64,000 bases of DNA from Bacteroidia bacterium (GCA_965216465.1 CBDCFW010000006.1:768001-832000); one strand, 5' to 3'. Positions 13,059 to 53,497 are shown, counted from the first letter of the stretch. Numbers and translations are program-made. The notes: generated from the letters alone by a model not told the origin.

Positions 13059-13158
13059 TGGTTTCCTGTTGGTTGCGAATGTAGGAATTCTACCGAATTC
13101 GTGGTCAATTTAATTGGGCAAAAAAAGAAGGTGCTATCAAAGCACAAAGTCAATCGAT

Positions 13159-13686: not shown

Positions 13687-13818
13687 TTTGATTCTTTTGT
13701 TCGACGACGAAATTAATCATTCTTTCCAACTTATCCATCCAAACAAATGGCAAATTAGGCGTGGGTAATGTAAAAAGTGTCGATGGTTTATTGTACGTTT
13801 GTTGCTTAATATCAAATT

Positions 13819-15464: not shown

Positions 15465-15472
15465 GATTTAAG

Positions 15473-16693: not shown

Positions 16694-16703
16694 TTGTTGA
16701 GTT

Positions 16704-33090: not shown

Positions 33091-33858
33091 TTATCCGTAG
33101 TTAGGTTTCCTTTTCTCAATAAACGCTGAGGTTCCTTCTTTAAAGTCGTTGGTTTCAAAGCTTTTAGCAAAACTGTCTATTTCGTAGTTAAAACCGTCTT
33201 TATTTTGGTACAATGCGTTCGTACACTTGATCACCTCAGCAATGGCCATGGGGCTTTTAGCCGTTAATTTTTGAATATATTTTTCACATGTCGCCATAAG
33301 TTCTTCAACTGGAACTACTTGAGTAACTAGGCCATAATCTAGTGCTGTTTGTGCATCAATAGCATTGGCACTGATTAGCATGTTCAAAGCACGTCCTTTT
33401 CCAACTATTTGAGCTAAACGTTGAGTTCCGCCGTAGCCTGGAGGAACACCAAGGTTTACTTCTGGTTGACCGAATTTGGCATTTTCACTAGCTATTCGAA
33501 CATGACAAGACATGGCAAGTTCGCATCCTCCGCCTAAGGTATATCCATTAACCGCAGCAATAACAGGAATTTCACTTGCCTCGATGGAGTCAAATACTCG
33601 ATGACCACTTGCACTCATTTCTTTAGCCTCAGCTTCGCCAAAATGTGCAAATTCAGCGATATCGGCACCTGCAGCAAAGGCTTTGGAGCCCTTACCTGTT
33701 AAGATAATTCCGCGTACACTTTTCTCGTTGTTTAATCTTTCTATTTCTTTACCAATTTCTTGGATCAATTCGATGTTCAAGGCATTCATCTTATCTTCAC
33801 GATTAATCGTGATAATCTGGATTGTTTCCTTGTTCTCTGAGAGGATGTTATTGTACAT
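33091..33858 (-). CDS. Enoyl-CoA hydratase/crotonase (start placed at MYNNILS)
   Basis: AFAAGADI, AVNG..LGGGCELA, FGQPEVNLG, PGYGGTQRL. Confidence 0.9.
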   Translation of the reverse strand: MYNNILSENKETIQIITINREDKMNALNIELIQEIGKEIERLNNEKSVRGIILTGKGSKAFAAGADIAEFAHFGEAEAKEMSASGHRVFDSIEASEIPVIAAVNGYTLGGGCELAMSCHVRIASENAKFGQPEVNLGVPPGYGGTQRLAQIVGKGRALNMLISANAIDAQTALDYGLVTQVVPVEELMATCEKYIQKLTAKSPMAIAEVIKCTNALYQNKDGFNYEIDSFAKSFETNDFKEGTSAFIEKRKPNYG

Positions 33859-33916
33859 GGCGGCAAATTTATACCAATAGAAGTTCAAGCAGAACTTTAA
33901 GTTTAAATTTGCACCG
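33859..33916. promoter_or_regulatory. Divergent promoter pair, both likely leaderless
   Basis: TAAATTTG-CCGCC-ATG on minus (33864-33871) and TAAATTTG-CACCG-ATG on plus (33904-33911). Confidence 0.55.
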
Positions 33917-36595
33917 ATGCAACTCGAAAAAACGTTAGGTTTTGATGAATTTCCTGCTTCGGGATTAGAAGAGTGGAAAGCAAAAGCAATCAAAGATTTG
34001 AGAGGAAAACCTCTAGAAGATCTTGGCTTTACGACTTCAGATGGCATTCAGATGGAGTCCTTTTTAAATCAAGAGAATAATCATCAACTTGTAGAAATTC
34101 CAGACACGAATTGGGAAATCACTCTCTTATCAAATGAGGAACTAGAAGGAGTAGACCATACTGTTAGCGATTTATCTGAATTAGGAGTTAGTCTCGGCGA
34201 ATTAAGTCTTGAAAGCTTAAAAGCAATTCAAAACCAAGATGAGGTTTATTTTGAGATTAACACGCAATTTTTAGAGAACATTGCGAAGCTTAGAGCTGCT
34301 CGAATTGCAAACCCTAATACGCGAATTAATGCGGTAATTATTCCGAAAGAGGATGAATTTGAATACAATAATTTAGTACGACAAACAATTGGAACCATTT
34401 CGGCAATTGTAGGAGCAGCACATCGAATTTGCATTTTACCTTTTAATGGTAAAGACAATTATCAGAGCAAGAGGCTGGCTCGAAACATTATGCTTTTGCT
34501 TCAAAAAGAGAGCTATTTAAATAGCATTACAGATGCGGCTCGAGGCAGTTTCTTTATTGAACAACTTACCGCTAAATACCTTGAAGCGTTAAACAATTCA
34601 TCAGTTTCTAAACCTTCAAATGAGGTGAGGTTTGTAGCAGGTATACCTCCTTATTTAAGAGGACCGTATTCTACGATGTATGCCGTTCGCCCGTGGACTG
34701 TTCGTCAATACGCTGGATTTAGCACAGCAGAAAAAAGTAATGCTTTTTATAAGAGAAATTTAGCTGCAGGTCAAAAAGGATTATCCGTTGCTTTTGACTT
34801 GGCTACCCATAGAGGATATGACAGCGACCACCCACGTGTAACTGGAGATGTTGGAATGGCCGGAGTTGCAATCGACAGCATTGAAGACATGAAAGTGCTG
34901 TTCAATGAAATTCCACTTGGAGATATTTCTGTTAGTATGACCATGAACGGTGCAGTATTACCAATTATGGCATTTTATATAGCTGCAGCAAAGGAGCAAG
35001 GGGTTGATAAAGAACGACTTGCGGGCACAATTCAAAATGATATTCTGAAAGAGTTTATGGTGAGAAATACGTATATCTATCCACCAGAACCAAGCATGAG
35101 AATCATTTCGGATATCTTCAAATACACTTCGAAGAACATGCCTAAGTTTAACAGTATCTCAATTAGTGGTTACCACATGCAAGAGGCAGGTGCAACTCCT
35201 GAGTTAGAATTGGCTTACACCTTAGCTGATGGATTGGATTATGTTAGAACTGGAATTGCAGCTGGTTTGAAGATTGATGATTTTGCCCCTCGACTTTCAT
35301 TCTTCTGGGGAATTGGAATGAATTTCTATCAAGAAATTGCAAAGCTAAGAGCAGGACGATTGCTTTGGGCTAAACTGATTAAGAAGTTTAATCCTGAGAA
35401 TCCAAAGTCAATGGCACTAAGAACTCATTGTCAAACTAGCGGATGGAGTTTAACAGAGCAAGACCCGTATAATAATGTGGCTCGAACAACTATTGAGGCG
35501 TTGGCAGCTGTATTTGGAGGTACACAAAGTTTACATACAAATAGTTTTGATGAGGCTATTGCACTACCTACTGATTTTAGTGCAAAAATTGCACGGAATA
35601 CACAGCTTATTATTCAGAATGAGACGGATATTACCAAGGTCATTGACCCATGGGGAGGTGCTGAAGTTATTGAAAACTATACGCACGAACTTGCAAACAA
35701 AGCTTGGGAATACATCTTAGAAATAGAAGAGCTTGGGGGAATGGCCAAGGCGATTGAGAGTGGAATTCCAAAGATGCGAATTGAAGAATGTGCTGCGGTT
35801 AAACAGGCCAAAATTGATAGTAACAAAGATATTATTGTTGGGGTAAATAAGTTTACAACAGACGAAAAGGCCGACTTTGAAATTTTAGAAGTAGACAATC
35901 AAGCGGTTAGAGAGAGTCAGATCGCAAGATTGAGTAAAATGAAGGCAGAGCGCAACAATGATTTAGTTGATGAAATATTAGCTAAACTCGAATCAGCGGC
36001 CTCTTCTTCTGAAAATCTTTTGGAATTATGCGTTGAAGCAGCAGAGGCGCGTGCAAGTTTGGGTGAGATTTCGCTTGCTCTTGAAAATGTGTTTGGTAGA
36101 TTTCAAGCAAATAATTCCACGATTAGCGGTGTATATTTGAAAGAGGTGCAAAACGATGATTCGGTAAAATTGGCTCGGGCGAGAGCAGATGAGTTTGCAA
36201 AAACAGAGGGAAGACGTCCGCGAATCTTAGTGGCAAAAATGGGTCAGGATGGTCACGATAGGGGTGCGAAAATTATCGCAACTGCATTCGCTGATCTTGG
36301 TTTTGACGTAGATATCGGGCCGCTATTTCAAACACCTGAAGAAGTAGCAAAACAAGCCATGGAGAATGACGTGCATATTTTGGGTGTATCATCCTTAGCA
36401 GCAGGGCACAAGACGCTAATGCCTCAAGTTGTAAATGAGCTTAAAAAGCGCAACATGGATGAGGTAATTGTAGTCGCTGGAGGGGTAATTCCGGAGCAAG
36501 ACTATGATTATTTGTACGATCACGGAGTTGACTTTGTATTCGGTCCGGGAACTGTGATAGCTGAAGCAGCGATTGATATTTTGGAAAGGTTGTAG
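33917..36595 (+). CDS. scpA: Methylmalonyl-CoA mutase (catalytic subunit fused to a shortened small-subunit-like N-terminus)
   Basis: [33 protein letters not shown]12-binding motif; extra ~235-aa N-terminal region with mutase beta-subunit motifs. Confidence 0.92.
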
Positions 36596-38858: not shown

Positions 38859-40541
38859 ATGTACGATATTCTTTCATTGGGAGAAATGGTTCTTCCTGAA
38901 TTAAGAAAAGTAGCCGATAAATTTGAAATCAAACATAAGGGGCTAAAAAAGCAAGATCTTATTTACAAAATACTTGATTATCAAGCGGTTAACCCAGAAA
39001 AGGTTAGGGCGTCTAACGCTGACTCTCCTGCACCTCAAGCAGAAAAATCTGAAAAACCTAAGCGTCAACCAAAGCCTCGTAAGAAAGAGGATGAACCAAA
39101 GGAAAAAAGAGCTGAAAAAGAGCAATCTTCAGACGAAGAGAAGCGTGAGAAACGTTCAAGAAAACCACGTGGTGAAAAAATCAGCAGAGAGTCAAGAATT
39201 GCCAAAGCACAGAACGGCGACAATGACAAAAAAGACGATAAATCGTCAAATAATGCTGACGGTAAAGACAAATCTGAGAATAAAAACGCTGATAGCGAGC
39301 GTAGAAATAAAGAAAAAGAGCAACGCGATAGAGAAAGAGAACAACGCGATGCTGATAGAAAAAGAGCTGAAGAAGAAAAGCGTAAAAAGAAAGAAGCTGA
39401 AGAGAAACTCATTAACTATCTTGAACTTGAAGGATTAGTAACAACACAAGGTGTGCTTGAAGTTATTTCTGACGGATATGGTTTCCTTCGATCAGCTGAT
39501 TATAATTACCAGCCATCTCCAGATGATGTTTACATTTCTCCTAGTCAAGTAAGACAAAATGGACTTAAAACAGGCGATGTCGTTAACGGACACATCCGTC
39601 CACCGAAAGAAGGAGAGAAGTATTTTGCTTTGATTAACATTTTGAGTATTAACGGCAGATCGGTAGAATTTGTAAAAGATAGAGTAGCATTTCATCACTT
39701 AACTCCACTATTCCCAGATGAGAAGTTCAACTTAGAGTATAAACACAACAATTATTCAACCCGTATCATGGACTTTATTTCACCAATTGGTAAAGGACAA
39801 AGAGGATTAATAGTTGCTCAACCTAAAACAGGTAAGACTGAATTATTGAAAGATGTTGCAAATGCAATTTCTGCAAACCACCCTGAAGTTTACATGATTA
39901 TCTTGCTAATTGATGAACGTCCTGAAGAGGTTACTGATATGGCTAGAAGTGTAAAAGCTGAAGTGGTAGCATCAACCTTTGATGAACCAGCAGATAAGCA
40001 TGTTAAACTTGCCAATATTGTTTTAGAAAAAGCTAAAAGATTAACGGAGTGTGGTCATGATGTTGTGATTTTGCTTGATTCCATTACTCGTTTGGCCAGA
40101 GCGTATAACACTGTTCAGCCTGCTAGTGGTAAGATATTATCAGGGGGTGTTGACGCTAACGCACTTCAAAAGCCAAAAAGATTCTTTGGTGCTGCAAGAA
40201 ACATTGAGAATGGCGGTTCTTTAACCATCATTGCAACAGCACTTACTGAAACAGGATCCAAAATGGATGAGGTAATTTTTGAAGAGTTCAAAGGAACTGG
40301 TAACATGGAGCTCCAATTGGATAGAAAACTGTCTAACAAGCGAATCTACCCAGCAATTGATATTGTTAATTCAAGTACAAGAAGAGAAGATCTTCTGCTT
40401 GATAAACCTGTACTTCAGAAAATGTGGGTGATGCGTAATCACCTCTCAGATATGAACTCTGAAGAAGCGATGAGCACTATGCTCAACTATATGAAGGGTA
40501 CTAAGAATAACGAAGAATTCTTAGTAAGCATGAATGGATAA
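38859..40541 (+). CDS. rho: Transcription termination factor Rho with charged N-terminal insertion
   Basis: [47 protein letters not shown]. Confidence 0.97.
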
Positions 40542-41038
40542 TGAAGCAGCTGGTAACCATAGCGTTACTGTTTGTTTCTTTTCTAGTTCAAGCACAAGAC
40601 TCAGTGACCATACAGGGTACTGATAGTCTCCGCGTTGATATAAATAGTCCTGTTCAGAAACCTATTGCTTTTCATTGGGCTGATTCTATAGCTAATTCAT
40701 TGGCTGTCCCACCACATTTGGTTTACGAGATTGGTATGAATGAAAGTCGCTGGCAAAATCCTGATCAACCAAATTATTTAATTAAGGATGGAGACCTTCA
40801 AGTTATTGGAGCGACTTTTAATTATTGGTACAAAAGATTGAACCTTACTGGAGGAAAGACCCGATATAATTATTTGGTAGTAGGGATCAATTACCTGCAC
40901 GAATGTTATAAAATTGGAGGTACGTGGCGGAAGGCGAGATATATCTATGGTAGAGGTAGGTGGAAGGAACCTCAATACTGGACAAAACTCGAACGAAGCT
41001 TCATGAACAAAATTGATTGGTCGCAATACGATAAGTAA
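40541..41038 (+). CDS. Secreted protein with divergent lysozyme-like/SLT motifs
   Basis: Signal peptide; MNESRW (ES motif), GDLQV, GINYL; TAATG overlap with rho. Confidence 0.5.
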   Translation: MKQLVTIALLFVSFLVQAQDSVTIQGTDSLRVDINSPVQKPIAFHWADSIANSLAVPPHLVYEIGMNESRWQNPDQPNYLIKDGDLQVIGATFNYWYKRLNLTGGKTRYNYLVVGINYLHECYKIGGTWRKARYIYGRGRWKEPQYWTKLERSFMNKIDWSQYDK

Positions 41039-41055
41039 CATAACGTTACTTAACC

Positions 41056-41661
41056 ATGCGACTTTTAAAATTCTTACTTGCTTTTTCTGTTTCAATTTCT
41101 GGATATTCTCAAATTTCCGATGCTGAAGTGCGAGATCTAAAAGGAGGGAATGTACAACCAGATACGACTCCAATTTATCAGTTGCCTTACGAAGTAGGAA
41201 AAAAGTACCTGCTCATTCAAGGATGGCAAAGCAGTTTGTCTCATAAGGGTGAGATAGCCCAAGACTTTAAGATGCGAAGAGGCACTAAGATATTTGCGGC
41301 AAGAAAAGGGGTCGTTGTGCAAGTTAAGTCCGATGGAACTCAAGCAGGTTTAAAATCGAAGTATTTAGGTGAAGGTAACAATGTGGTGATAATGCACGCT
41401 GATTCAACTTTTGCTGGATATTGGCACTTGAAGCATAATGGCCCAGCGGTTAATGTAGGAGATTCAGTCGATCAAGGAGAATTTATTGGATATAGTGGGC
41501 ATACCGGATATTCGGCATTTCCTCATTTACACTTTATGGTATTTAAGTACGAAAAAGGTATAAGAAGAACTATACCTATTCGCTATTTAACAAAGAAAGG
41601 CCCAAGATATATTCGTCCTGGAAACAGGTATACTTGTGTTAGGGTGCAACAACCTGAATAA
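41056..41661 (+). CDS. M23 family metallopeptidase
   Basis: H...D (SHKGEIAQDF), YWHL, G.TG.S..PHLHF. Confidence 0.88.
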   Translation: MRLLKFLLAFSVSISGYSQISDAEVRDLKGGNVQPDTTPIYQLPYEVGKKYLLIQGWQSSLSHKGEIAQDFKMRRGTKIFAARKGVVVQVKSDGTQAGLKSKYLGEGNNVVIMHADSTFAGYWHLKHNGPAVNVGDSVDQGEFIGYSGHTGYSAFPHLHFMVFKYEKGIRRTIPIRYLTKKGPRYIRPGNRYTCVRVQQPE

Positions 41662-41740
41662 TCTTAGGTTCTCGGTATTGAAAGTAACAAATTACTGGAT
41701 CAATGAGTGCGGCCTATTCTCCTCCTTCTGCATAACAGAA

Positions 41741-42424
41741 TCAAAACATTGACCCAACATCAAGACCTAGGTAAACAAAAGTCAACGCAACAGTATCATA
41801 GACTCCGTGAGCTAAAATACTAGAATAAAGGATTTTTCGAAACATCAGGTAGATCGTTCCAAATCCAAATGCAATAATCATAGCCAGAATCATTCCTGTT
41901 GGACCTTGATAGTAATGCCCAACTCCGCTAAATAGGCTAGTTACAATCAAAGAGATTCCCCAATGAATATTTTGAGACTCCTCATCCTTGACCATCAATT
42001 TGACAATTGAATTCATAATATATCCTCTAAACAATAGTTCTTCAAAAAGTGCCCCAAAAAGCCAAGCAATTACGATGCTGATTGCAAATAGCTTAAAATT
42101 ACCTTCCAATACGTCAAATTCATCAAGATTTGGCTCCATTCCAACAAAATCAACAATGATCTCCTTCAAATAGTATGAAATCAAGAGCAATAGAATTGTA
42201 AATGGCACTACTGAAAAAATCAATGAATATGGATTTTTCGGCAAGACTAAGCCAACTCCCTTCCAATCATCATTAGTCCACGACAAACTTATCCAAGCTA
42301 ATAATGTACTAAGCGTCAGACCTAACAATAAAAAATACCCTGCATTCAGTGTTAATACAGAAGGTAGCAATACCGCGATAATGTGCAGAACCCTTCTTTT
42401 AATTATGCGTTTAGGCTGAATCAA
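41741..42424 (-). CDS. CPBP (CAAX/Abi) family intramembrane glutamic endopeptidase
   Basis: EELLFRG, F...H.YQG, AHGVYD. Confidence 0.88.
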   Translation of the reverse strand: MIQPKRIIKRRVLHIIAVLLPSVLTLNAGYFLLLGLTLSTLLAWISLSWTNDDWKGVGLVLPKNPYSLIFSVVPFTILLLLISYYLKEIIVDFVGMEPNLDEFDVLEGNFKLFAISIVIAWLFGALFEELLFRGYIMNSIVKLMVKDEESQNIHWGISLIVTSLFSGVGHYYQGPTGMILAMIIAFGFGTIYLMFRKILYSSILAHGVYDTVALTFVYLGLDVGSMF

Positions 42425-42813
42425 TTTACAATCTTACTCCCCAAGAAAGACAACGGAAGATACAGTATAATTGAGACCAAATTGAACCAAAGTGGGTGTG
42501 GGATTATTAGCATATTGGCGATGTTAGCCAGCATCAAGATGGTCCCGGTAGTAAGGGCGACTCTTTGCCAATTTGTTTTAGTAATGACTCCAGACACCAA
42601 TCCTCCAACAAATGCAGAAACTGCGAATACAATTAGCATGCTGAGCAATGCTAGAATTGGCAAACTGTCAATGAACATTTTCAATTCATCCTTCGCCTTG
42701 TAATCTAAATCTGCAGGCACAGGGAAAACTGATGCATTAATCAAATCACCTAGTCCGACGATTAACCAACCAACGAGTACGCCAACAATTACACTTAAAA
42801 TCCTATTTTTCAT
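42421..42813 (-). CDS. Hypothetical 4-TM membrane protein (start placed at MKNRILS)
   Basis: Four hydrophobic segments, PHPLWF motif, overlaps both neighbours. Confidence 0.7.
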   Translation of the reverse strand: MKNRILSVIVGVLVGWLIVGLGDLINASVFPVPADLDYKAKDELKMFIDSLPILALLSMLIVFAVSAFVGGLVSGVITKTNWQRVALTTGTILMLANIANMLIIPHPLWFNLVSIILYLPLSFLGSKIVN

Positions 42814-43255
42814 TGGGCTTAAAATGTTGATGAACAAATCGTTTCCAACCTTTTTTATTCTTGGACTCTACCGCCCAATGAAAGCCCAGTTCATCATCTG
42901 GCCAAAACGCTTGTCTGGCTAATCCAGCCGGCATTTCAGCTTCGAATCCAAAAGCATTTGGATGAATGTCGCTTACGTCAGCAAGGACACCTGTTGAATT
43001 CTTACCGTCAGAGGTAAATGACCAAAAACAAATTCTTTTACGGTTGTCCATTCCTATAATGGTATGATCGGTATACAGCTTATCTCCAAGATGCCATGTG
43101 ACATCCTGAATCAGATATTTATTGTCAAGGTCCAAACGGATTTCTCTGATGCACTGAGGGTTTGTCCGATCCTTGCTCCCAGGATTGCATACCCAATTTC
43201 CCAAAATAGGGTTAAAAAGTCCTAGCTTTCCTCTACCCTTTTTCCAGTTATTCAT
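42803..43255 (-). CDS. Hypothetical beta-rich protein
   Basis: 150-aa ORF; LGNW near N-terminus, FWSFTSDG; first gene after the 43305 palindrome. Confidence 0.7.
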   Translation of the reverse strand: MNNWKKGRGKLGLFNPILGNWVCNPGSKDRTNPQCIREIRLDLDNKYLIQDVTWHLGDKLYTDHTIIGMDNRKRICFWSFTSDGKNSTGVLADVSDIHPNAFGFEAEMPAGLARQAFWPDDELGFHWAVESKNKKGWKRFVHQHFKPNEK

Positions 43256-43304
43256 ACTACAATGATTTCTTTATACAATTCTACAGAATGAACGCTATTT
43301 GATT

Positions 43305-43320
43305 GTTGGTATATACCAAC
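43305..43320. promoter_or_regulatory. Perfect 16-bp palindrome, putative Crp/Fnr operator
   Basis: GTTGGTATATACCAAC abuts the stop codon of Crp/Fnr 43321-43899. Confidence 0.7.
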
Positions 43321-43899
43321 TTACCAGAATCGGTGGCTGTCTTGCGCACATTTGTTGTACAACTTGCTAAAATTAGTTGGATCAACATTGATGTAAGACG
43401 CCAGATATTTATGCGGCACTCTACTAAATAACTCCGGCCTCGACTTAATAAGTTGATCAAACCGCTCTTGGATAGTTAATACATGTTGATTCAAGAGCCT
43501 TTTTATTGTTGCCGACAGTACAGTCTCTAGTATTTTTCTATATGCTCGTTCTATGTCATGAGAAGCATCAAAAAGTTCATTTAGATCCTTGAAACTAATC
43601 ATTTCAATCTCAGTATTCTCAATGCAAATTATACTGAACATTGATTCCGTCTGATGGGCAAAAGAGTCTATGTCCACACACAAACGATTTAGATAGGCAA
43701 AATCAACAATTTCCCTAGCACCATCATTGTCTGAGAACATCATCACTGTACCTTTTTTGACCATTATTAGATTTAGTTGCACTTCCCCGTCGAGTAGCAC
43801 ATAGTCCCCTTTCTTAAATGACTCATTGACCAATTTTGCTTTAAACATAGCTCGGTCATCTGGCGAGATACTGGCATATAGAGCAAATAAATCAATCAT
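43321..43899 (-). CDS. Crp/Fnr family transcriptional regulator
   Basis: cNMP-binding-like N-domain (KKGDYVL..G), C-terminal HTH VPHKYLASYINVDPTNFSKL. Confidence 0.88.
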   Translation of the reverse strand: MIDLFALYASISPDDRAMFKAKLVNESFKKGDYVLLDGEVQLNLIMVKKGTVMMFSDNDGAREIVDFAYLNRLCVDIDSFAHQTESMFSIICIENTEIEMISFKDLNELFDASHDIERAYRKILETVLSATIKRLLNQHVLTIQERFDQLIKSRPELFSRVPHKYLASYINVDPTNFSKLYNKCAQDSHRFW

Positions 43900-44572
43900 C
43901 TTTCCTAGAAAGCAACTGGGTTATACTCGCTAAATGAGAAAACAAAACCAGAGGTACTACTACAGTAGGGAGCCAAACAAATGGAAAATACGTGACACCT
44001 ATGTTAGGTTGTTCATGTGATAACGCTTGAAAGCTTGTAGGAGCAGATAGAACCGCTATAGTTAAAATATTAATCAACAGGGCAAGGCAAATAAAATTCC
44101 AAACCAAAAGTCCCTTTCTCCCAACTTTTTTCAGCCTAAACACCAAGAAATAAACTACAGGAGCTGACAAACCTGAAAGGATATCATAATTCCACTTCTC
44201 AAATGTCATGAGATCTGGAATCAAACCTGCAAGAAATATTGCGTACAATATTAATTCTACTGGAATCCGAACAGCGTGCAAAATTGTTAAATATCGAAGG
44301 TCCAGCTGGCTTGCAAATGCTCTTCCTTTTCTGATGCAGATTAAAGCAATTACTAAGATGACTCCAGGACCCAAGAGAAAAACAAAACGAGGAGGAATTG
44401 CAGTCGTATTACTATAAAACCCCATTAAGCCTAAGAATGAGGTTAATATCATCCAAATAACTATACCAATTGCTAATTTTCTATTGCTTTTGGTTGCCTT
44501 AAAGAATAACCAAACTGTTGCCATCGTAGTAACGATAAAACCGATTTGGACGAATGCTGATACCTGGTCCAT
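43892..44572 (-). CDS. Hypothetical multi-TM membrane protein
   Basis: About 7 hydrophobic segments; HAVRIPVE, NYDILSG, PFVWLP. Confidence 0.75.
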   Translation of the reverse strand: MDQVSAFVQIGFIVTTMATVWLFFKATKSNRKLAIGIVIWMILTSFLGLMGFYSNTTAIPPRFVFLLGPGVILVIALICIRKGRAFASQLDLRYLTILHAVRIPVELILYAIFLAGLIPDLMTFEKWNYDILSGLSAPVVYFLVFRLKKVGRKGLLVWNFICLALLINILTIAVLSAPTSFQALSHEQPNIGVTYFPFVWLPTVVVPLVLFSHLASITQLLSRKDD

Positions 44573-44626
44573 ATATTTTTAATTATTTACGATGACAAAA
44601 ATGCCTTGTATATGGCAAAATTGAAC

Positions 44627-44640
44627 TTGACAAATGACAA
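44627..44640. promoter_or_regulatory. Imperfect palindrome, putative Crp/Fnr operator
   Basis: TTGACAAATGACAA (TTGwCA-nn-TGwCAA), 9 nt past the stop of Crp/Fnr 44650-45219. Confidence 0.6.
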
Positions 44641-44649
44641 TTAATAAAG

Positions 44650-45219
44650 TCAAACAATACTTCTTCTAATTCTGCTCAATGAACTGTCAGTTATTCCCAA
44701 GAAACTGGCAATGTGCTTTAGTGGAGTCGATTTAATGACTTCCGCCTGGGTGTCCAACAATCTTTGATACCGTTCGAGTGCTGTTTGTGTAATCATGGAA
44801 TAAATCCTCTTTTTAGATCGAATAAACTCTTTGACCAAAATGGCGCGTCCAAAATCTCGAAAGGCCGGTTTGTCATGAAACAAGGTATTGAGCTCATGAT
44901 ACGAAATCCGAAACCCTAAACAATCGGTCACAGCTTCAAGATAGATATGAGAAGGTTCACGATTGAAGAAAGAGGTGATTTCAAACGCAATGTTGTTAGA
45001 TGTGAAAAAATCGGTAGTTATTTGATCGCCTTCTAAATCATAGGCGAAGGTTCTTAAAACACCATACTGTAGAAAAATATAGTCATCTGAGACTTGCCCA
45101 GGTGCCAAAAGGAGATCTCCTTTTTTAGGATTAAATGGATGAAATTGGTTTGCGATATAAGCCGCCTCAACCGGTAGTATATCAACAGTATTCAAAATGA
45201 AATCTTTGAGTTTATTCAT
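44650..45219 (-). CDS. Crp/Fnr family transcriptional regulator
   Basis: KKGDLLL..G, G.LRTF, C-terminal HTH PLKHIASFLGITDSSLSRIR. Confidence 0.9.
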   Translation of the reverse strand: MNKLKDFILNTVDILPVEAAYIANQFHPFNPKKGDLLLAPGQVSDDYIFLQYGVLRTFAYDLEGDQITTDFFTSNNIAFEITSFFNREPSHIYLEAVTDCLGFRISYHELNTLFHDKPAFRDFGRAILVKEFIRSKKRIYSMITQTALERYQRLLDTQAEVIKSTPLKHIASFLGITDSSLSRIRRSIV

Positions 45220-45281
45220 AGCTATGTATTATAGGATTAAATCTAATTGAGTGGCAGTAAATATACCAAAAAAGGATACAG

Positions 45282-45340
45282 ACCTATTTAAGTATGAACT
45301 CCACCAACTTCAGCAAACTATACAACAGTATCAAAATAGG
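45282..45340 (+). pseudogene. Remnant of the C-terminal HTH of a third Crp/Fnr gene
   Basis: Translates as TYLSMNSTNFSKLYNSIKI, matching SYINVDPTNFSKLYNK of 43321-43899; in-frame stop upstream at 45258-45260. Confidence 0.7.
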
Positions 45341-45343
45341 ACT

Positions 45344-45357
45344 TTGGTCTAGACCAA
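45344..45357. promoter_or_regulatory. Perfect 14-bp palindrome, putative Crp/Fnr operator
   Basis: TTGGTCTAGACCAA right after the Crp remnant; same arms as 43306-43319. Confidence 0.7.
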
Positions 45358-45468
45358 GTTTTATGTTTTCAAAAACACAGATTTTTGTACTTGAAAAAGT
45401 TGGTATTGATTGTACGTCTTGCAACCAATACTTAACAGGCTTGATGCAATTACTAAGCTTAAAGAAAA

Positions 45469-46368
45469 ATGGAAACAGTAAAAAACCAAAGGTTAGATAG
45501 ATCAGAATATCCATTTGAATCAAACTACTTCACGGTAAATGGTCATCAACTGCACTACATCGATGAAGGAAGAGGGCAGCCCATTTTGTTTGTACATGGC
45601 ACCCCTTCCTGGAGTTTTGAGTATAGGAACCAAATAAAGTCTTTGAGCTCCGAGTATCGCTGTATTGCCATGGACCACATAGGATTCGGTTTGTCAGACA
45701 AGCCAAGCACATATGACTATTCAAGCCTGAATCACGCGCAATCATTAGAACGACTGATTCTAGAACTAGATTTATATGATATAATTTTTATTGTCCATGA
45801 CTTTGGTGGCCCAATTGGGATGAGTTTTGCCCTAAATTATCCGGATAGAATTGATAAGATTGTGGTCCTAAATTCTTGGCTTTGGAGCAGCGAACAAGAG
45901 CCAGAATTCAAAAAGTTAAGCAAAGTGATCCGCAGCCCATTGCTTCCATTTCTATACCGTAATTTCAATCTATCAGCAAAATATTTGTTGCCACGGTCTT
46001 TTGGAAAGAAAAAATTGCCAAGGAGCCTACTCAAGCAATACACACAGCCATTTCAAAATAGTAAACAAAGGAATGGGACTGTGGGATTTGCACAGTCCTT
46101 ACTAAATAATCAAGCTTGGTTTGAGGAATTGTGGATTAAGAAGAAATCACTAAAAGAAGTTCCGTTCTTATTCATTTGGGGAATGAATGATCAGTTTGTT
46201 CCAGGAAAGTTTTTGGACAAGTTTATGTCTGGATTTGACAAGGTCCAAGCTGTCAAAATTGAGTCATGTGGACACTTCCCACAGGAAGAGGAATCGGAGA
46301 TCGTTACTAAGTCCATATTTGACTTCATAAAAACGGATAGCAATGAAAATAACCCTCAGAAAAGCTAA
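45469..46368 (+). CDS. Alpha/beta hydrolase, haloalkane dehalogenase/OleB-like
   Basis: HYIDEG.G, HGTPSWSF, DHIGFGLSDKP, HDFGG (Asp nucleophile), GHFPQEE. Confidence 0.85.
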   Translation: METVKNQRLDRSEYPFESNYFTVNGHQLHYIDEGRGQPILFVHGTPSWSFEYRNQIKSLSSEYRCIAMDHIGFGLSDKPSTYDYSSLNHAQSLERLILELDLYDIIFIVHDFGGPIGMSFALNYPDRIDKIVVLNSWLWSSEQEPEFKKLSKVIRSPLLPFLYRNFNLSAKYLLPRSFGKKKLPRSLLKQYTQPFQNSKQRNGTVGFAQSLLNNQAWFEELWIKKKSLKEVPFLFIWGMNDQFVPGKFLDKFMSGFDKVQAVKIESCGHFPQEEESEIVTKSIFDFIKTDSNENNPQKS

Positions 46369-46858
46369 CTTATCAGATTTGCGACTGTTGCAATATTGGG
46401 ATCAACAGCAACATGTAATTGACTCTAATCCAGGTGGTGGATGGGACTGGGAAACCGAACTAAATCAAAATTGCGACTGGTGTATCCCATACATTTCAGA
46501 AATGGATGGTCAGGCAATTGGATTTCTCCAAATTGTTGATCCAGCAGGGGACCCCAGCAACTATTGGGGTATTCGTTCCATCGGGTACAGAGCAATAGAC
46601 ATCTGGATTGGGGAAGCCAACAATCTGAATATAGGCATTGGAACGATAATGATGAACATAGCCATTGCAAGATGTTTTGAAGACAAAAAAGTTACTTCAA
46701 TTTTGGTCGACCCCCTTTTTACTAATACCAAAGCGCAAAGATTTTACCAACGTCTTGGGTTTAAACACATTGAAACCAAAGTGTTAGGTGAAGATAAAAG
46801 TTGTGTTTATCGATTGGACAGACAGGACTGGAATGAACGCAGTGAAGAGATCCTATGA
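46343..46858 (+). CDS. GNAT acetyltransferase (AAC(6')-like subfamily)
   Basis: IGFLQ, AIDIWIGE...G.G, VDP...N..A.RFY.RLGF. Confidence 0.8.
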   Translation: MKITLRKANLSDLRLLQYWDQQQHVIDSNPGGGWDWETELNQNCDWCIPYISEMDGQAIGFLQIVDPAGDPSNYWGIRSIGYRAIDIWIGEANNLNIGIGTIMMNIAIARCFEDKKVTSILVDPLFTNTKAQRFYQRLGFKHIETKVLGEDKSCVYRLDRQDWNERSEEIL

Positions 46859-47418
46859 CAGATCAAGTTTTCATAGAAGATCGAATTAAAAGGGGCTATC
46901 AAGCACTGGACAAGGTCAATCATGAACTGTCTAAATTGAATAGAAATCAGCTGAACTGGAAACCTAACACTGAGACATGGAGTATTGCTGAGTGTCTGAA
47001 TCATCTAATCATTGCAGATGGCTTATATTTTGAGGACTTTTCTGCTATTGGTCGTAATGAATATGAAATGAGTTTATGGGAACTGCACAGTCCATTTACT
47101 CATCTGTTTGGCAAAACATTAATAAATCAGATGAAAGAGAAGGTAACAATACCATTAAAAACTCACAAAATCCTTAAACCACCTTTAACCAATTATGAAA
47201 CAAAAATTGTAGAAAATTACACATCAAGCCTAAGACATTTAATTAATCTTGTCTCGGTCTGTAATCATATTGATTTAGGTAAAGTTATAATTAGCTCTCC
47301 AACAATCAAGTGGATAACATACAGTTTTAGGGACGCTTTGGAGTTCCTATTTGAACATGAACACAGACATATAAATCAAGCCATCCGACTAAAGTCTGAA
47401 GAAGGTTTTCCTACATAA
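46855..47418 (+). CDS. DinB family protein
   Basis: LNWKP..ETWSIAECLNHL, HEHRHINQA. Confidence 0.85.
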   Translation: MTDQVFIEDRIKRGYQALDKVNHELSKLNRNQLNWKPNTETWSIAECLNHLIIADGLYFEDFSAIGRNEYEMSLWELHSPFTHLFGKTLINQMKEKVTIPLKTHKILKPPLTNYETKIVENYTSSLRHLINLVSVCNHIDLGKVIISSPTIKWITYSFRDALEFLFEHEHRHINQAIRLKSEEGFPT

Positions 47419-47587
47419 TGATTGAGGTTCGGCCGCATTTGATATTTGAAATAATAGTTCTACACTCTAGTTAACAATGCCCGTCATGCAGATGCTTTGA
47501 TTAAATGATTTTCATGAACCTCCAATGGACATCAAGCAAAACCGAAACACTATAATACGCTGATATTCTGTATCTTTTAGGATTCTT

Positions 47588-48715
47588 TTAATTTCTGTAT
47601 TGAAGAGAACCATCTTCGTCAATGTATTTAATCTTTTCAAACACCACATAATCCCCAGGTACCAGCTTTTTTAAAGCTGCAATAGCAGAATCCCGAATGT
47701 GTGTTCCTGATTGACTTATAAGCTGAGCATCACCTTTTTTCGGAACAAATATGAAAAGCAAAGATTGGATGGAAACTTTTGATGATACAATGCAACCCGC
47801 TTTGTTTTGTAGTAGTTGTTGAACAATATCATCAATAAGACTTAAGCTAATTGAATCGATTGTTTCAATGTCAATTTGAAGTCCACAGGGCAAATCTTCA
47901 ACTATTTTAAATTCAACCCCTGAAGAGGTATAATATTCATTGTTTTTGAGGTAATGGAAATGGCTTAGACGCACAAGATCACCACTATTCAAGTTCTTTA
48001 GATTATCAATTAACTTTGACTTATCTGTCTGCGGATTAACAGATAGAGCTGCCTGAAATATGTTTAGTATTTGGTTGTTAATTGTTGTTCTTGACCCGAT
48101 GATAACTTTAACTTGTGTTGAAGAATCGGCCCATTCTAGTTGCTTTGTACACGAATTGTAACCCAACGAATCGGAAACTAGTGCTATTAATTCCTCCTTT
48201 GTAATATTTCGCGTATAGTGATATTTTTTCGGAAACAAGCTCCAACATGGATCCGTTTTTGCGTAAACGAGTGAATCTATGACCAATGTGAATCCAGAGG
48301 TTTGATAAAGCACACCATCCAATTCGTATTGAATGTTTGAGAACAGAATTTTTTCGTACGATTTGGCGTTTTGAATGGATTCAACCAAACTGCTCAAGTA
48401 TGGAGTTTGAAAGCTTCCATCTGTAATCGGAAAAGTTCCAGTTGGTTTATCGGAAATATCGAAGAAGGTGACAGTAAAATTCTTGGCATATATTGTATCA
48501 TCAATGTGGTTATAACAAGAATTCTGAGTAAACCATATTCGATTCAAATTGAGTAGTTCTTCTGTGCTAATGATTTGCACCTTAGATGTGTCGTCGAATG
48601 GTAAATGACATTCATCAGCAATAGGAACTAAAGGGTACTCAATTTTTGCTTCAATTTGTGCATTAGATCCTAAAAATGAGACAAAAGGGAAAGCAAGTAG
48701 GAAGAATCTCTTCAT
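47588..48715 (-). CDS. Secreted protein with three GldM-C-like repeats, C-terminus apparently truncated
   Basis: Signal peptide; three ~120-aa two-Cys units ending IQNAKSYEKILFSNIQY / LKNLNSGDLVRLSHFHY / LKKLVPGDYVVFEKIKY. Confidence 0.6.
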   Translation of the reverse strand: MKRFFLLAFPFVSFLGSNAQIEAKIEYPLVPIADECHLPFDDTSKVQIISTEELLNLNRIWFTQNSCYNHIDDTIYAKNFTVTFFDISDKPTGTFPITDGSFQTPYLSSLVESIQNAKSYEKILFSNIQYELDGVLYQTSGFTLVIDSLVYAKTDPCWSLFPKKYHYTRNITKEELIALVSDSLGYNSCTKQLEWADSSTQVKVIIGSRTTINNQILNIFQAALSVNPQTDKSKLIDNLKNLNSGDLVRLSHFHYLKNNEYYTSSGVEFKIVEDLPCGLQIDIETIDSISLSLIDDIVQQLLQNKAGCIVSSKVSIQSLLFIFVPKKGDAQLISQSGTHIRDSAIAALKKLVPGDYVVFEKIKYIDEDGSLQYRN

Positions 48716-51700
48716 CTACCTTACTAACGTAATTGTACCACTATAAGTGTATTCTTTATCGTTTAGTGCAATGACCTTCAATTGGTAAGCATACACATCT
48801 TGTTGAGCTGGTAGTCCTTTATAAGTACCATCCCACTTCTTGTCTTTTTCAGTGGTTTGGAACATGATCTCACCCCATCTGTTGAAGATGATAAGATCCA
48901 TAGTTTTCTCACCGCTGATGATGGCGTGGAAGCCTTCATTTTGACCTGGTCCTGAATTGTCAGGAGTAAAGGCGTTCGGAATGTATACGATCAAGTCTGG
49001 ACCAACAACTACTGGGTGGTAGAACGAGTCTTTACATCCGTAGTTTGTGGTTACAACTAACTTCACGTGGTAAGTAGCTGTATCTGCAGAATAGAAGTAT
49101 GAAGGATCTTTTTCTGTAGACTTATCACCGCTTCTGTTGTTGAAGTCATCAAAATCCCAGAAGTGATCAGTAATTGTACTTCCTAACACATTAGGTACTG
49201 TACTTTGATCAGTGAAGTAGAATCGAGGCAGAGCCGCTGTAGTGTAGTTGTTCGGATTAGGAACAAAGTCTGCAGTTGGCAATGGATATACATCAATACT
49301 CGAGTTAAATACTGCTACACAACCTTTATCAGAGGTAAGGGTAAGTGTAACATTATTTGTACCGTCAGTGGTATAAGTTGCTGTAGGCGTAGGGCTGTTT
49401 GAAGTACTACCTTCACCCATGGTCCAAGCATAGTTTGCAGTATTAGGATTAACCTTGTTGTTGATTTGAACAGCAAAGTCAGAAGTTACTGGGTTACACC
49501 CGTTCGGGTTAGAAGGGATGATATCCGCCTCAGGAATAGGGTTAACCACGATGTCGAATGCGTCATCAACATCAGAACAAGAACCTAATCCAGTTGCAAG
49601 AACAATTACTCTGAATGTTTCAGCAGAATCGGTAATTAAATCGATGTCTACATCAACAGATTGATCATCGCCAGCTAAGGTATAACGGTCTTTGTTCCCA
49701 AACAGGTCGGTACTGTAGTAACCCACACCACCGTGGTTTGAAGCATTGATACCAAAGTTTAGGTCAAGGGCCATTTGTCCGTCAGGTCTACAGAAAACAG
49801 TATCGTTAGGAACACTCAAAATAGGTAGAGGTTCAACCACAGCACTAATCGAGTCAACATTTTGACAGCCAGTAGAAGGGCTAGTATAGTTGTAATAGAA
49901 CCAGATGTCAGAACTGTGAACTGTAGCATTACCTGGGCTAAAGCTGTTTCCGCCAACAATAGCACTCGGGTCAGTACTGGTCCAAGTACCACCAGTAGGA
50001 TTCACATTTAAAGGAACATCAGCCATATCCTCACAGTAACGAGGAGGTTGACGATCAAATGGATCAATGGTAATGGTCGGCAATGGATTGATTATCAAAA
50101 TCGTATCGTTGATTACCGGACAACCCGTTGAAGTGTGCGTATATCTTAGGTAGTATTCACCACCGTTTGTATTACTGTTAAAGGTATTGATAGAGTCAGC
50201 AGACAAACCACCAAGGTTGGTGATGTTGCTGTAAGTGGTTCCACCAATAGTTGTATCGTTAACAACAGACCACACACCATCGGTAAGGTTTACACCTGAT
50301 TGAAGGTTCAAAGAAACCTCTCCATCATTCCAGCAAAGTGGATCCATTTGAGAGAAGGTAATCGTTGGAACTCTCCAGATTTGCATAGAAACAGTGTCTT
50401 TACTTCTACAACCTCTTTCGTTCACGTAAGTAAACTCAAGAACAATCGTGTCTTTATCTGGATTTTCAAGCGTGTAGTAATCTTCACCAATTCTAAGACG
50501 ATAATCTGTAATACCAGCAACAAGACCGCTATCAACTAACATATTACTGAAGTCGTTTCCGTTACAGTCTAAGCACTTCCAAGAAGGAGTACCCAAGTAA
50601 GTAGCAGGAGAAACAACCACTGCGTCTTTTAGAGTCACCTCTTCAGCATCCTGACAGAATACAGTTTCATTTAGATAGGTATTTGGCAATGCATCTACCT
50701 GAATTTGTAGTGAGTCAGAGTTATAACATCCTGTAGTAGGGTCAGTGTAACCGTAAGTTACATAAGTTCTTACATTGGTTGCAGGAGCATTGATTAAACC
50801 ACAAGCACTATCAGTAAAGAAGGTGTTAGCGTTAACCAGGAATGGGAATTCCCAACAAGACCATGAACCACCTGTAGGACTGTTAATGTCGAAGTTCATT
50901 GAAATCGGACCGTAGTCACAACATACTTGTTTATCACCTTTGATATCTATTACAGGCAGAGGATTTACCGTTACCAGAATGGAATCGGCATCGTAACATT
51001 CTACTCCTCCTTCAGTCACATACAAGTCGAGTTGATACTCTGTTGTGGTTTGAGCTGGGAAGTCGTAATTCGAATTCGTGCCCAGCAGCAATCTCGGCAG
51101 CGAGGTTATATCGTACCATCGATAGAGTCCACTCTTACCATTGCCCATGGTATCTAGACCACCAGCAGCCAGTCGTACCGTGTCATCGAAACAATGAATT
51201 TGATCTGGGCCAGCATCGGCAGTTACAGTGTCGTTAACAAATAGGAATAAAGTATCAGTATCGAAACAGCCAAGGCTATCATAAACTTTCAATACATATT
51301 CACCACGTACATTGATAGTTACACTATCGTCATAGCTGAATGGAATCGCACCACCATTGAGGTACCATTCTTTCCAAAGTGTGTCACCTTGACGGATAGT
51401 ATCCATCAAAATTCTATCAACCCAGTAGGCCGTATCGTATGAAGGAATAATCAATGTGCTGTCATACGTACACAGCCTGATATCAGGCCCTAAATGAGCT
51501 TGCGGATTTTCTTTCAAGAATACTTGAATGGTGTCTTCAGAAGTACATCCTGTTTGATCGGTAATAATGATGCTTACCGCTGTATCAACTTGATTTGCAG
51601 GCACTTGAATTTCAAAGAACTCTAAGGTGTCAGCAAAATTGGATGTTACATTAAACTGGAAATCACCATCATCTGTTACTCCCATGGTACTCCATTGGTA

Positions 51701-53428
51701 GTTTATTGGAGGTGTAGCATTGTAAACATAAGGCTCCAATCGAAGCGTTGTTCCAGCACAAATAAAGGTGTCAGGACCTAATGATAGGTTTGCTTCAAGC
51801 AAAGGAGGAACTACTAGGGTATCCAAATAAATTGAAGGACAGTTATTTGGTTGATTATTTATGGTATGTTTGATAATATAGGTACCTCCTCGTCTAAATA
51901 AGATGGTATCTTGTTTTTGAAAACTTAAGAATGTTGCCGTAGATCTGAATTTAGCGATCTTAGGATTGAACATAATGTTCGAGTTGCTATCTAAAATTTC
52001 CCATCTATAGGAAGGAGTTCCTCTAAAACCTGTGATTGGTAAACTTTCAAAAGCGTACTCACCACACGGTAAAGTATCAATATCTCTTTCTGCTTCGGCT
52101 CTATGCTTAACCTTTACTCTAAATGATCTCACCGTTACTGCATTTAGCGGACAGGCATTATCTCTTGCCGTGACCGTAAAGGTATAAGGCAGGTCTTTGG
52201 CGTGATTTAGACTTGGTGTCCAACAAAAACGCCCTGTCTGAAGTCTGGCTAGCGGATTAACTATCGTGAACGAGGCTCCTGGGATACCTTGATTCCAAGT
52301 AACTTTTACTGTATCAGGGGGAGGTGCTGTAGCAGGAGGAGGAGGAACATATACAATGTCGTTTGTCGTTACATTGAAGCATATCTGCGAACCGGCACAT
52401 ACGCTATACGAAAAAGGACCATTAATAATCGGGGGATTATTATCTGGGCAACTCATTACAATGAATTGCATGTCTCTTCGCGTTATTCCAATTTGTTTAT
52501 ATGTTCCGGTGCTGTCTTTCCTCCATTCAATCATCTGGACGACCACAACGGCCACTTCAGTACAGTTTACAGGAGTAAAAATTATATCTCCTGTTTCAGG
52601 ATTAAGGTAAGTACCTATTGGCGGTGTAGCATTTGGATTAGTGTAAGGATAATTCAAAGACCCTGGATAATATGTCGCAATTGGATTAAGGTAGGTTCGT
52701 GTACCGTTATAGTTACAAATCAAGTTTTGACCTCTATAAGCCGGAGCAAACGAATAAGATATAGAGTCTAAATCAGCAGTATCAACGGCACCATTGTTGA
52801 ACGAATAGGGTTGGTTACAACACAATATAGCAACCGGATCGTTAGAGAGGGTAGGAGACGAATTACATGGAGCCTGACAAGCATTTATTTCACAAGAAGT
52901 ATAAAATGATTGTTGGCTTTGCCCTGTGGTAATCCCTACATTTCGAACATACAGTAAAACGCTTATTTCAAAATCACAACATCCTCCAGAAATAGAGCTT
53001 CTTAAATCTACTCTTCCGGTAAAAGTGTGTTTTTCAATACCATAAGGAAACGAACCATTGCATGGCTGTTGACATCTACTTTTATCCGTTCTACACGTAG
53101 GAGTTATATCAATGATGCTTTGCCTCGTCATTGATATGGTATTTACGTTGGTTGATTGTCCAGATGTAAGACATTTAACACTTAGCGAAGTAGGTGCAGT
53201 TAAGCTGCTGCCACAATTTTCTGTTGTTCCACATCGTGGAGATTGACCTAAAACATAGCATCCGTTACAATCTCGATAAAAGTTAAATGTAATGTCGTAA
53301 ATACCAGCAGTATCCCCACAGGTATAAGAGATATCAGAACCAATAATGTGATCAGCATAGGTGTGCTTTCCAATAAAACTAGTTATTAAGAATAAGGTAA
53401 AAACTGATATTAGCCGAGAAAGCTTCAT
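48716..53428 (-). CDS. Large Cys-rich PKD-domain surface protein with T9SS type B (CHU_C) sorting domain (start placed at MKLSRL)
   Basis: ADHIIGSDISY N-terminus, PKD (WDFDD, V.L.V), C-terminal YIPNAFTPD...IFNRWGE...WDG...GTITLVR. Confidence 0.85.
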   Translation of the reverse strand: MKLSRLISVFTLFLITSFIGKHTYADHIIGSDISYTCGDTAGIYDITFNFYRDCNGCYVLGQSPRCGTTENCGSSLTAPTSLSVKCLTSGQSTNVNTISMTRQSIIDITPTCRTDKSRCQQPCNGSFPYGIEKHTFTGRVDLRSSISGGCCDFEISVLLYVRNVGITTGQSQQSFYTSCEINACQAPCNSSPTLSNDPVAILCCNQPYSFNNGAVDTADLDSISYSFAPAYRGQNLICNYNGTRTYLNPIATYYPGSLNYPYTNPNATPPIGTYLNPETGDIIFTPVNCTEVAVVVVQMIEWRKDSTGTYKQIGITRRDMQFIVMSCPDNNPPIINGPFSYSVCAGSQICFNVTTNDIVYVPPPPATAPPPDTVKVTWNQGIPGASFTIVNPLARLQTGRFCWTPSLNHAKDLPYTFTVTARDNACPLNAVTVRSFRVKVKHRAEAERDIDTLPCGEYAFESLPITGFRGTPSYRWEILDSNSNIMFNPKIAKFRSTATFLSFQKQDTILFRRGGTYIIKHTINNQPNNCPSIYLDTLVVPPLLEANLSLGPDTFICAGTTLRLEPYVYNATPPINYQWSTMGVTDDGDFQFNVTSNFADTLEFFEIQVPANQVDTAVSIIITDQTGCTSEDTIQVFLKENPQAHLGPDIRLCTYDSTLIIPSYDTAYWVDRILMDTIRQGDTLWKEWYLNGGAIPFSYDDSVTINVRGEYVLKVYDSLGCFDTDTLFLFVNDTVTADAGPDQIHCFDDTVRLAAGGLDTMGNGKSGLYRWYDITSLPRLLLGTNSNYDFPAQTTTEYQLDLYVTEGGVECYDADSILVTVNPLPVIDIKGDKQVCCDYGPISMNFDINSPTGGSWSCWEFPFLVNANTFFTDSACGLINAPATNVRTYVTYGYTDPTTGCYNSDSLQIQVDALPNTYLNETVFCQDAEEVTLKDAVVVSPATYLGTPSWKCLDCNGNDFSNMLVDSGLVAGITDYRLRIGEDYYTLENPDKDTIVLEFTYVNERGCRSKDTVSMQIWRVPTITFSQMDPLCWNDGEVSLNLQSGVNLTDGVWSVVNDTTIGGTTYSNITNLGGLSADSINTFNSNTNGGEYYLRYTHTSTGCPVINDTILIINPLPTITIDPFDRQPPRYCEDMADVPLNVNPTGGTWTSTDPSAIVGGNSFSPGNATVHSSDIWFYYNYTSPSTGCQNVDSISAVVEPLPILSVPNDTVFCRPDGQMALDLNFGINASNHGGVGYYSTDLFGNKDRYTLAGDDQSVDVDIDLITDSAETFRVIVLATGLGSCSDVDDAFDIVVNPIPEADIIPSNPNGCNPVTSDFAVQINNKVNPNTANYAWTMGEGSTSNSPTPTATYTTDGTNNVTLTLTSDKGCVAVFNSSIDVYPLPTADFVPNPNNYTTAALPRFYFTDQSTVPNVLGSTITDHFWDFDDFNNRSGDKSTEKDPSYFYSADTATYHVKLVVTTNYGCKDSFYHPVVVGPDLIVYIPNAFTPDNSGPGQNEGFHAIISGEKTMDLIIFNRWGEIMFQTTEKDKKWDGTYKGLPAQQDVYAYQLKVIALNDKEYTYSGTITLVR

Positions 53429-53497
53429 AACACCAAGACACACAAATATACTAATGTGTTGCTCAAAATGCTCAAAAAATAAGGGGTTTCAGCTGCC

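Follow-up and report, generated by a model that had tools for sequence, protein, structure and literature searches.

A recombinase-less 5.9-kb accessory block, very probably inserted into a hairpin at the 3' end of a Bacteroidota gene

In a stretch of 64,000 nucleotides (nt) from Bacteroidia bacterium (GCA_965216465.1 CBDCFW010000006.1:768001-832000; hereafter the window, with positions counted from its start), a 5.9-kb accessory block without a mobility gene has very probably been inserted into a hairpin at the 3' end of a conserved Bacteroidota gene, from which it removed the last ten codons. The insertion is well supported because all 15 aligned homologues of the truncated protein possess a terminal strand, an in-frame tail lies 5.9 kb away, and three out of three relatives are devoid of the block. 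The block is a recombinase-less genomic islet and a clear-cut instance of a familiar type of event. Among the titles listed in a literature search, none described a Bacteroidota block lacking a recombinase, flanked by an 8-nt repeat and placed in a hairpin loop, which is no proof of absence in print. As to the route of entry, a site-specific exchange catalysed by an enzyme acting in trans is tentatively preferred over transposition or microhomology joining.

Truncated gene, stranded tail and loci without the block

The features on which the argument depends are listed below in the order in which they lie on the window.

41056-41661, plus strand: M23 peptidase gene, 201 amino acids (aa), left neighbour of the insertion (Pfam Peptidase_M23, E = 1.1e-18)
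41639-41674, minus strand: orphan 3' tail, 11 codons and a stop (REPKIIQVVAP), in frame with 47588-48715 after removal of 41683-47604
41667-41673, plus strand: left arm, GGTTCTC, of the split palindrome, perfect complement of 47605-47611
41675-41682, plus strand: left copy of the 8-nt direct repeat GTATTGAA, read from the sequence
41683-47596, no strand assigned: putatively inserted block, 5,914 nt between the repeat copies
47597-47604, plus strand: right copy of the 8-nt direct repeat GTATTGAA, within the L-Q-Y codons of the truncated gene
47605-47611, plus strand: right arm, GAGAACC, of the split palindrome, inside the truncated gene
47588-48715, minus strand: truncated gene, encoding a secreted-type protein of 375 aa with three beta-sandwich domains, member of a rare Bacteroidota family, last strand missing

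The protein encoded by the open reading frame (ORF) at 47588-48715 ends in EDGSLQYRN and has no match in Pfam or NCBIfam. Its family comprises 46 proteins at E <= 1e-3 in a full HMMER scan of 1.84 billion representatives, a word-indexed search having retrieved only 2 relatives, and the closest relatives in the protein sets are 36-38% identical. The homologue alignment was built from 15 sequences, namely P0002, P0003, ten full-length matches and three fragments reaching the C-terminus, with exclusion of the N-terminal or internal fragments P0011, P0015 and P0018-P0021, of the 1,938-aa P0017 and of the weaker matches P0024-P0048. All 15 extend beyond the end of the window protein, running for 5-9 residues past an aligned tyrosine column as opposed to 2, and this C-terminal stretch has a consensus approximating P-[IV]-[IV]-I-T-[LI]-x. 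Most of the weaker matches outside the alignment share the same ending, and a strict form of the end pattern is found in 29 of 49 other proteins, several of the misses being fragments or near-misses. An AlphaFold2 model of the homologue P0006 (17-row alignment; predicted local distance difference test 84.0, predicted TM-score 0.57) displays three beta-rich domains, the last strand being formed by residues 378-380 of 383; when submitted to Foldseek, the model retrieved tandem FnIII/Ig-like folds at low TM-scores, because the domain arrangement differs. Taken together, the homologue ends and the P0006 model indicate that the window protein is devoid of the closing strand of its third domain.

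Rejoining was performed by removing 41683-47604 by coordinates. In the rejoined sequence the reading frame runs into the orphan tail and terminates at the stop codon 41639-41641, a change of ending that had been proposed from the sequence alone and that translation confirmed. The resulting protein has 384 aa, against 369-388 aa for the full-length homologues, and the tail provides P-K-I-I-Q-V-V (P-x-I-I-x-V) at the position and distance of the homologues' terminal strand, followed by the stop. The proposed restoration of a terminal strand is in accordance with the 15 of 15 aligned homologues that run into a further strand, the match of the tail itself being modest. Rejoining would also make the family gene overlap the M23 gene, whose last 23 nt lie opposite the orphan tail. 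A convergent overlap is as anticipated, but the accompanying claim that many gene pairs of the window overlap in this manner goes too far, as 3 of the 11 convergent ORF pairs do so, by 4, 8 and 14 nt, all of them shorter than the 23 nt of the rejoined pair.

At the junctions, the repeat coordinates, the extended forms and the arm sequences are exactly those of the sequence-only reading. The two copies are identical at 8 of 8 nt and, when extended, at 10 of 11 (TCgGTATTGAA on the left, TCtGTATTGAA on the right); one 8-nt copy is present on each side, and no target base is lost or added. The rejoined palindrome totals 23 nt, with perfect 7-nt arms and a 9-nt spacer of which the repeat occupies 8 positions, the next base outward of each arm being unpaired. 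Its hairpin folds with -10.7 kcal/mol on the plus strand and -9.5 on the minus strand, versus -3.3 and -6.5 for the present junctions. The stem starts 6 nt past the M23 stop, no T run follows it on either strand, and a terminator scan of the present-day sequence found none at either junction. Outside the repeat the two junctions are identical at 11 of 24 positions (P = 0.032). The octamer GTATTGAA occurs at 9 sites in the window, counting both strands, against 3.6 +/- 2.0 expected, a figure reached by 1 of 100 shuffles; the flanks of the seven other copies are unlike those of the two junction copies, and the excess may be due to coding bias.

The repeat-plus-arms geometry by itself is at chance level. 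Perfect 7-nt inverted arms accompany 9 (3e-4) of the 28,442 pairs of 8-nt direct repeats lying 500-20,000 nt apart in the window, and 30 Markov shuffles gave a mean of 8.1 such pairs. When only the 205 pairs with both copies no more than 25 nt from a gene boundary are considered, arms are expected in 0.065 and seen in 1, which is this junction pair. Since the geometry is at chance level, the case for an insertion rests on independent evidence.

Part of that evidence comes from related genomes. A single genome scan with a 9-row family alignment yielded three loci, all of them in metagenome-assembled genomes (MAGs) and here called L001, L002 and L003, the family proteins of which are 37-38% identical to that of the window. 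Their gene order was established from ORF lists, Pfam and tblastn, and is given below together with that of the window (T9SS, type IX secretion system; M23, peptidase gene).

Window: thyA, E2, Rho, 165-aa gene, M23, block, family gene, 1,575-aa T9SS protein, TilS, OstA, desaturase, GH3 fusion
L001: desaturase, OstA, TilS, family gene, M23, 165-aa gene, contig end
L002: GH3 fusion, desaturase, OstA, TilS, T9SS protein, family gene, Rho, E2, thyA
L003: as L002, minus the T9SS protein

The block is absent from all three loci, which retain the flanking gene order as relatives of a genomic-island carrier would be expected to do, and none of its 10 proteins has a match in them at E <= 1e-5. In L001 the family gene and the M23 gene are directly adjacent and convergent; their stops are 4 nt apart, and this M23 gene product is 67% identical (128/191) to that of the window. 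In L002 and L003 the family gene is separated from a convergent Rho gene by 19 and 105 nt, respectively. The family genes of the three loci likewise end in the terminal strand. Hairpins are found at the same tail-to-tail junction in L002 (z = -2.36) and L003 (z = -2.31), and none in L001. As these relatives are distant, they bear witness to the ancestral order rather than to an empty site of recent date. Three outcomes that had been set beforehand as contrary to an insertion, namely relatives carrying the block with other boundaries, homologues naturally ending in QYRN, and M23 and family genes never adjacent, were looked for and none occurred.

These results show that, very probably, the family gene (now 47588-48715, minus strand) stood tail-to-tail with the M23 peptidase gene in an ancestor, and that a single event placed 5.9 kb into the 9-nt spacer of a 7-bp palindrome located in the last codons of the family gene, just past the M23 stop. 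This event left one 8-nt copy at each junction. In place of its last ten codons the gene received a single codon followed by a stop, its former tail being displaced by 5.9 kb. Although no longer coding, the 15 nt of the left arm and left repeat are still perfect, and the truncated ORF is intact, which would disfavour a very old event; likewise, a cargo without close relatives would disfavour a very recent spread in the sampled data.

Two further observations concern the family itself. In L002 (9983-11133; 240 + 118 aa) and in L003 (10001-11160; 158 + 231 aa, in overlapping frames) the family gene is split into two ORFs, which may represent pseudogenes or MAG assembly errors; together with the window truncation, this makes 3 genomes out of 4 in which the gene is damaged. 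In the 1,938-aa P0017 the family profile matches 29 separate stretches, best at profile positions 254-297, so that the beta-sandwich domain of the family also occurs in long tandem arrays.

Possible routes of entry

The att-site (attachment-site) reading of the junctions is plausible but unproven. Under the route that we tentatively favour, a circular donor carrying the same 8 nt would have recombined with the chromosomal palindrome in a conservative staggered exchange across the 8-nt spacer, in the manner in which a tyrosine-type site-specific recombinase works, and the palindrome probably doubled as the terminator hairpin of the M23 gene. The enzyme would have been supplied from elsewhere, by another element or by the host, since the block neither codes for such an enzyme nor offers room for a decayed copy. 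Three features of the junctions speak for this route: all but one of the 9 spacer positions between the perfect arms belong to the repeat, a construction found in only 9 of the 28,442 repeat pairs; the agreement at 11 of 24 positions outside the repeat is expected of an exchange between similar sites and not of a target duplication; and the target neither lost nor gained a base.

Comparison with known systems gives partial likenesses. The core sites of tyrosine recombinases consist of inverted binding arms around an overlap region of 6-8 bp, as in lambda attB, loxP and FRT. The rejoined site likewise has perfect inverted arms and a short spacer filled by the shared stretch, and the direct repeats share a putative crossover core in the manner of attL and attR (8 of 8 nt, 10 of 11 when extended), but the dimensions are 7-nt arms, a 9-nt spacer and an 8-nt identity, and the deduced partner site has no matching arms. 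Xer-dependent integrating elements and pdif modules are recombinase-less and are moved by the host XerC/D at dif-like sites, which consist of 11-nt arms around a centre of 6-8 nt and are located at the replication terminus or on plasmids. The block resembles them in carrying cargo without a recombinase of its own and in being joined at a small palindromic site; however, its site has 7-nt arms that do not extend and a 9-nt spacer, is located in a coding 3' end and has no second site in the window, and the rejoined palindrome thus does not look like a dif site. Elements that are decayed but mobilizable in cis (CIMEs) also combine cargo lacking recombinase and transfer genes with short direct repeats at the 3' end of a gene, their mobility, if any, depending on the enzyme of another element. 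The block has the repeats, which are only candidate att sites, and has no integration or transfer genes, but in contrast to CIMEs no related autonomous element, tandem accretion or remnant of a lost module is visible, its repeat is only 8 nt long, and it does not replace the gene end that it removed.

Several results weigh against the reading given above, some of them bearing on the insertion and others on the site-specific exchange. Against a profile of the 15 homologues the native protein scores 377.9 bits and the rejoined one 379.2, a gain of 1.3 that 186 of 3,000 random continuations also attain. On a 5-column strand matrix the orphan tail is equalled by 1,636 of 20,000 random continuations, and by 188 of 20,000 when family-like placement and termination are also demanded, a criterion chosen post hoc; a simple end pattern closes 15% of the stop-terminated frames of the window. 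The sequence match of the tail to the family is modest, with P ranging from about 0.009 to 0.15 according to the test. Concerning the exchange, a scan of the block and of 52 window ORFs revealed no integrase, transposase or relaxase, and searches of the 10 block ORFs with Pfam, NCBIfam and PHROGs detected no domain of an integrase or recombinase, so that the block has no tyrosine or serine recombinase of its own, as the sequence-only reading had stated. The non-coding stretches within the block (58-249 nt) leave no space for an integrase remnant. The deduced element-side site has weak symmetry and no clear arms, the block ends share no repeated words of the kind expected of arm-type binding sites, and the window contains no further copy of the palindrome, either exact (5-15 nt spacing) or with up to 3 mismatches, and no tRNA gene. 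The palindrome fits a tyrosine-recombinase core site, but fits equally well a terminator hairpin at a tail-to-tail junction, and the hairpins at the same junction in L002 and L003 imply that no recombinase is needed to explain it. Moreover, blastn against plasmid and phage collections gave no DNA match for the block, and the homologues of the two block proteins searched, although numbering thousands in Bacteroidota, reach no more than 63% and 66% identity. In the absence of a close homologue of these two proteins (2 of the 10), nothing shows the block moving or spreading. Consequently, of the site-specific insertion claimed from the sequence alone, the part that stands is a lineage-specific insertion truncating a 3' end, but not the action of a recombinase on att sites, given an element site without clear arms and no second copy.

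An illegitimate, microhomology-guided integration, in which circular or broken foreign DNA annealed at a chance identity of 8-11 nt to a break in the hairpin-forming palindrome, is an unlikely alternative. Palindromes are break-prone, and such joining requires no mobility gene or dedicated recombinase, none of which is present; that nothing shows the block existing or moving elsewhere also agrees with it, as does the imperfect identity beyond 8 nt (TCnGTATTGAA, with agreement at 11 of the 24 positions farther out). On the other hand, the join is reciprocal and precise to the base on either side, and is centred on the spacer between perfect arms, so that it looks enzyme-guided; such joins are rare, and microhomology joining does not predict one so precise and so well centred.

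Transposition, whereby a non-autonomous unit would have been mobilized by a DDE transposase from elsewhere, with the hairpin loop cut at an 8-nt stagger and gap repair leaving a target-site duplication of 8 nt, seems quite unlikely. Units of the IS6/IS26 type and other DDE elements are reported to produce 8-bp target duplications (PMC7986276). The 8-nt direct repeat flanking the block, with no target base lost, corresponds to what several insertion sequence (IS) families leave, and is equally expected under other mechanisms. Unlike such units, the block has no terminal inverted repeats: the best agreement over offsets of -3 to 3 is 8 of 15 positions, which 15.5% of random pairs reach (P = 0.155), and a repeat search found no end-to-end inverted repeat at the block ends. 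Neither the block nor the window contains a transposase or an IS copy, and a target duplication would not be expected to leave junctions that resemble each other beyond the repeat (11 of 24, P = 0.032).

Finally, that no insertion occurred, the block being ancestral and lost in the relatives while repeat, arms and restored frame are coincidental, is extremely improbable, for although the window-wide chance level of the geometry (9 pairs seen, 8.1 expected), the distance of loci that are silent on recent history (family protein 37-38% identical), the lack of a step in base composition and the modest family match of the tail would all be compatible with it, it requires three independent clean losses, a gene alone in lacking the last strand that 15 of 15 homologues have, and an in-frame tail of the right length exactly where the repeat sets the join, with only 0.065 boundary-placed repeat-plus-arms pairs expected per window.

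Cargo and neighbourhood of the block

The block contains nine clear ORFs arranged in two divergent groups, the number that had been counted from the sequence alone, in addition to one doubtful ORF of 79 aa. These and the non-coding right end are as follows.

41741-42424, minus strand: CPBP/CAAX-type intramembrane protease, 227 aa (Pfam Rce1-like, E = 2e-14; NCBIfam matches below cut-offs)
42421-42837, minus strand: 138-aa ORF of unknown family (only match the NCBIfam TrgA family, 16.5 bits versus a cut-off of 40; none in Pfam, PADLOC or PHROGs)
42803-43255, minus strand: 150-aa ORF of unknown family (no match in Pfam, NCBIfam, PADLOC or PHROGs)
43321-43899, minus strand: Crp/Fnr-like regulator, 192 aa (cNMP_binding, E = 6.9e-6, just under the gathering score; CRP model, E = 1.2e-6, below cut-off)
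43892-44572, minus strand: 226-aa protein of unknown family (no match in Pfam, NCBIfam, PADLOC or PHROGs)
44650-45219, minus strand: second Crp/Fnr-like regulator, 189 aa (cNMP_binding, E = 9.7e-8)
45469-46368, plus strand: alpha/beta hydrolase resembling haloalkane dehalogenases, 299 aa (Abhydrolase_1, E = 1.9e-34; NCBIfam haloalkane dehalogenase models below cut-offs)
46343-46858, plus strand: GNAT acetyltransferase, 171 aa (Acetyltransf_8, E = 7e-19)
46855-47418, plus strand: DinB_2 superfamily protein, 187 aa (DinB_2, E = 5.3e-10)
47419-47596, no strand assigned: non-coding right end of the block, 178 nt, with no contained ORF of at least 40 aa, no Rfam match and no significant fold

The two block proteins for which homologues were searched are the 226-aa protein, with 3,049 homologues, a best non-self identity of 66% and named matches mostly from Flavobacteriaceae, and the alpha/beta hydrolase, the best non-self homologue of which is 63% identical. 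The GNAT protein scores 54.8 bits with the AAC(6') models against a cut-off of 280, and as these scores are far under the cut-offs no resistance function is claimed for it. A search of 12 proteins with PADLOC gave no match that would indicate a defence origin of the cargo, and PHROGs, as to a phage origin, returned only generic esterase and acetyltransferase matches. Same-family counterparts of the DinB_2 protein (46855-47418) and of the alpha/beta hydrolase (45469-46368) are encoded elsewhere in the window, at 11226-11744 and 21957-22730, respectively.

The composition of the block is mildly deviant, by about 2 standard deviations. Its tetranucleotide distance is 0.208 versus 0.145 +/- 0.027, a value reached by 8 of 117 sliding segments (block-overlapping segments included), and its codon-usage distance is 3.58 versus 2.55 +/- 0.50, reached by 2 of 41 control runs; the G+C content (GC) of third codon positions is 0.364 versus 0.323. 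In the comparison of composition suggested by the sequence-only reading, the block thus deviates mildly in tetranucleotide and codon usage; its overall GC is 0.374 versus 0.387 in the rest of the window, and the GC profile has no step at the block.

The window, with a GC of about 0.38, is a housekeeping stretch of a Bacteroidota chromosome that encodes Rho (with a long N-terminal part), an E2 acyltransferase, thyA, TilS, an OstA/LptD-like protein and a fatty-acid desaturase, together with T9SS cargo carrying CHU_C domains. No Rfam match at E <= 1 was obtained in 40500-49000, and the intergenic regions of the block contain no hairpins above chance. The T9SS (CHU_C) protein situated between TilS and the family gene (48716-53443; 1,575 aa) has a counterpart of 56% identity in L002 (5126-9982) and is missing from this slot in L001 and L003, so that the conserved neighbourhood has a second slot of variable content. 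In L003, about 4.4 kb between Rho and E2 (13078-17492) encode an Asp-Al_Ex permease, a bacteriorhodopsin-like protein and a Fic protein, where the window has 104 nt. The 971-aa fusion of GH3 and a beta-lactamase fold at 57707-60622 is conserved in L002 and L003 with 72-81% identity. Further away, the divergent ORFs for an enoyl-CoA hydratase (33091-34047, minus strand) and a methylmalonyl-CoA mutase (33917-36595, plus strand) overlap at their starts by 131 nt as listed; since the 892-aa ORF enters its mutase domain only at residue 238, the true mutase start is probably located further downstream.

Significance of the block

Small accessory islands without a mobility gene are common, and their route of entry is usually impossible to tell. 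In the present case the sequence reveals, at single-base resolution, the two junctions, the original state of the target and the damage that the host gene suffered, and the earlier gene order has the support of an outgroup. We consider it very unlikely, and offer it as a conjecture, that the block belongs to a class of recombinase-less cargo modules in Bacteroidota which are moved in trans, by a recombinase of the host or of another element that recognises small hairpin-forming palindromes at gene ends and exchanges strands across the loop. If true, such modules would parallel the Xer-dependent and pdif modules, their landing sites being hairpins of terminator-like type. The case provides a testable site, consisting of the 23-nt palindrome and the deduced circle junction, for a trans-acting recombinase that moves recombinase-less cargo in Bacteroidota, and if there is no such recombinase, the block would stand as a tidy record of a single gene-truncating acquisition.

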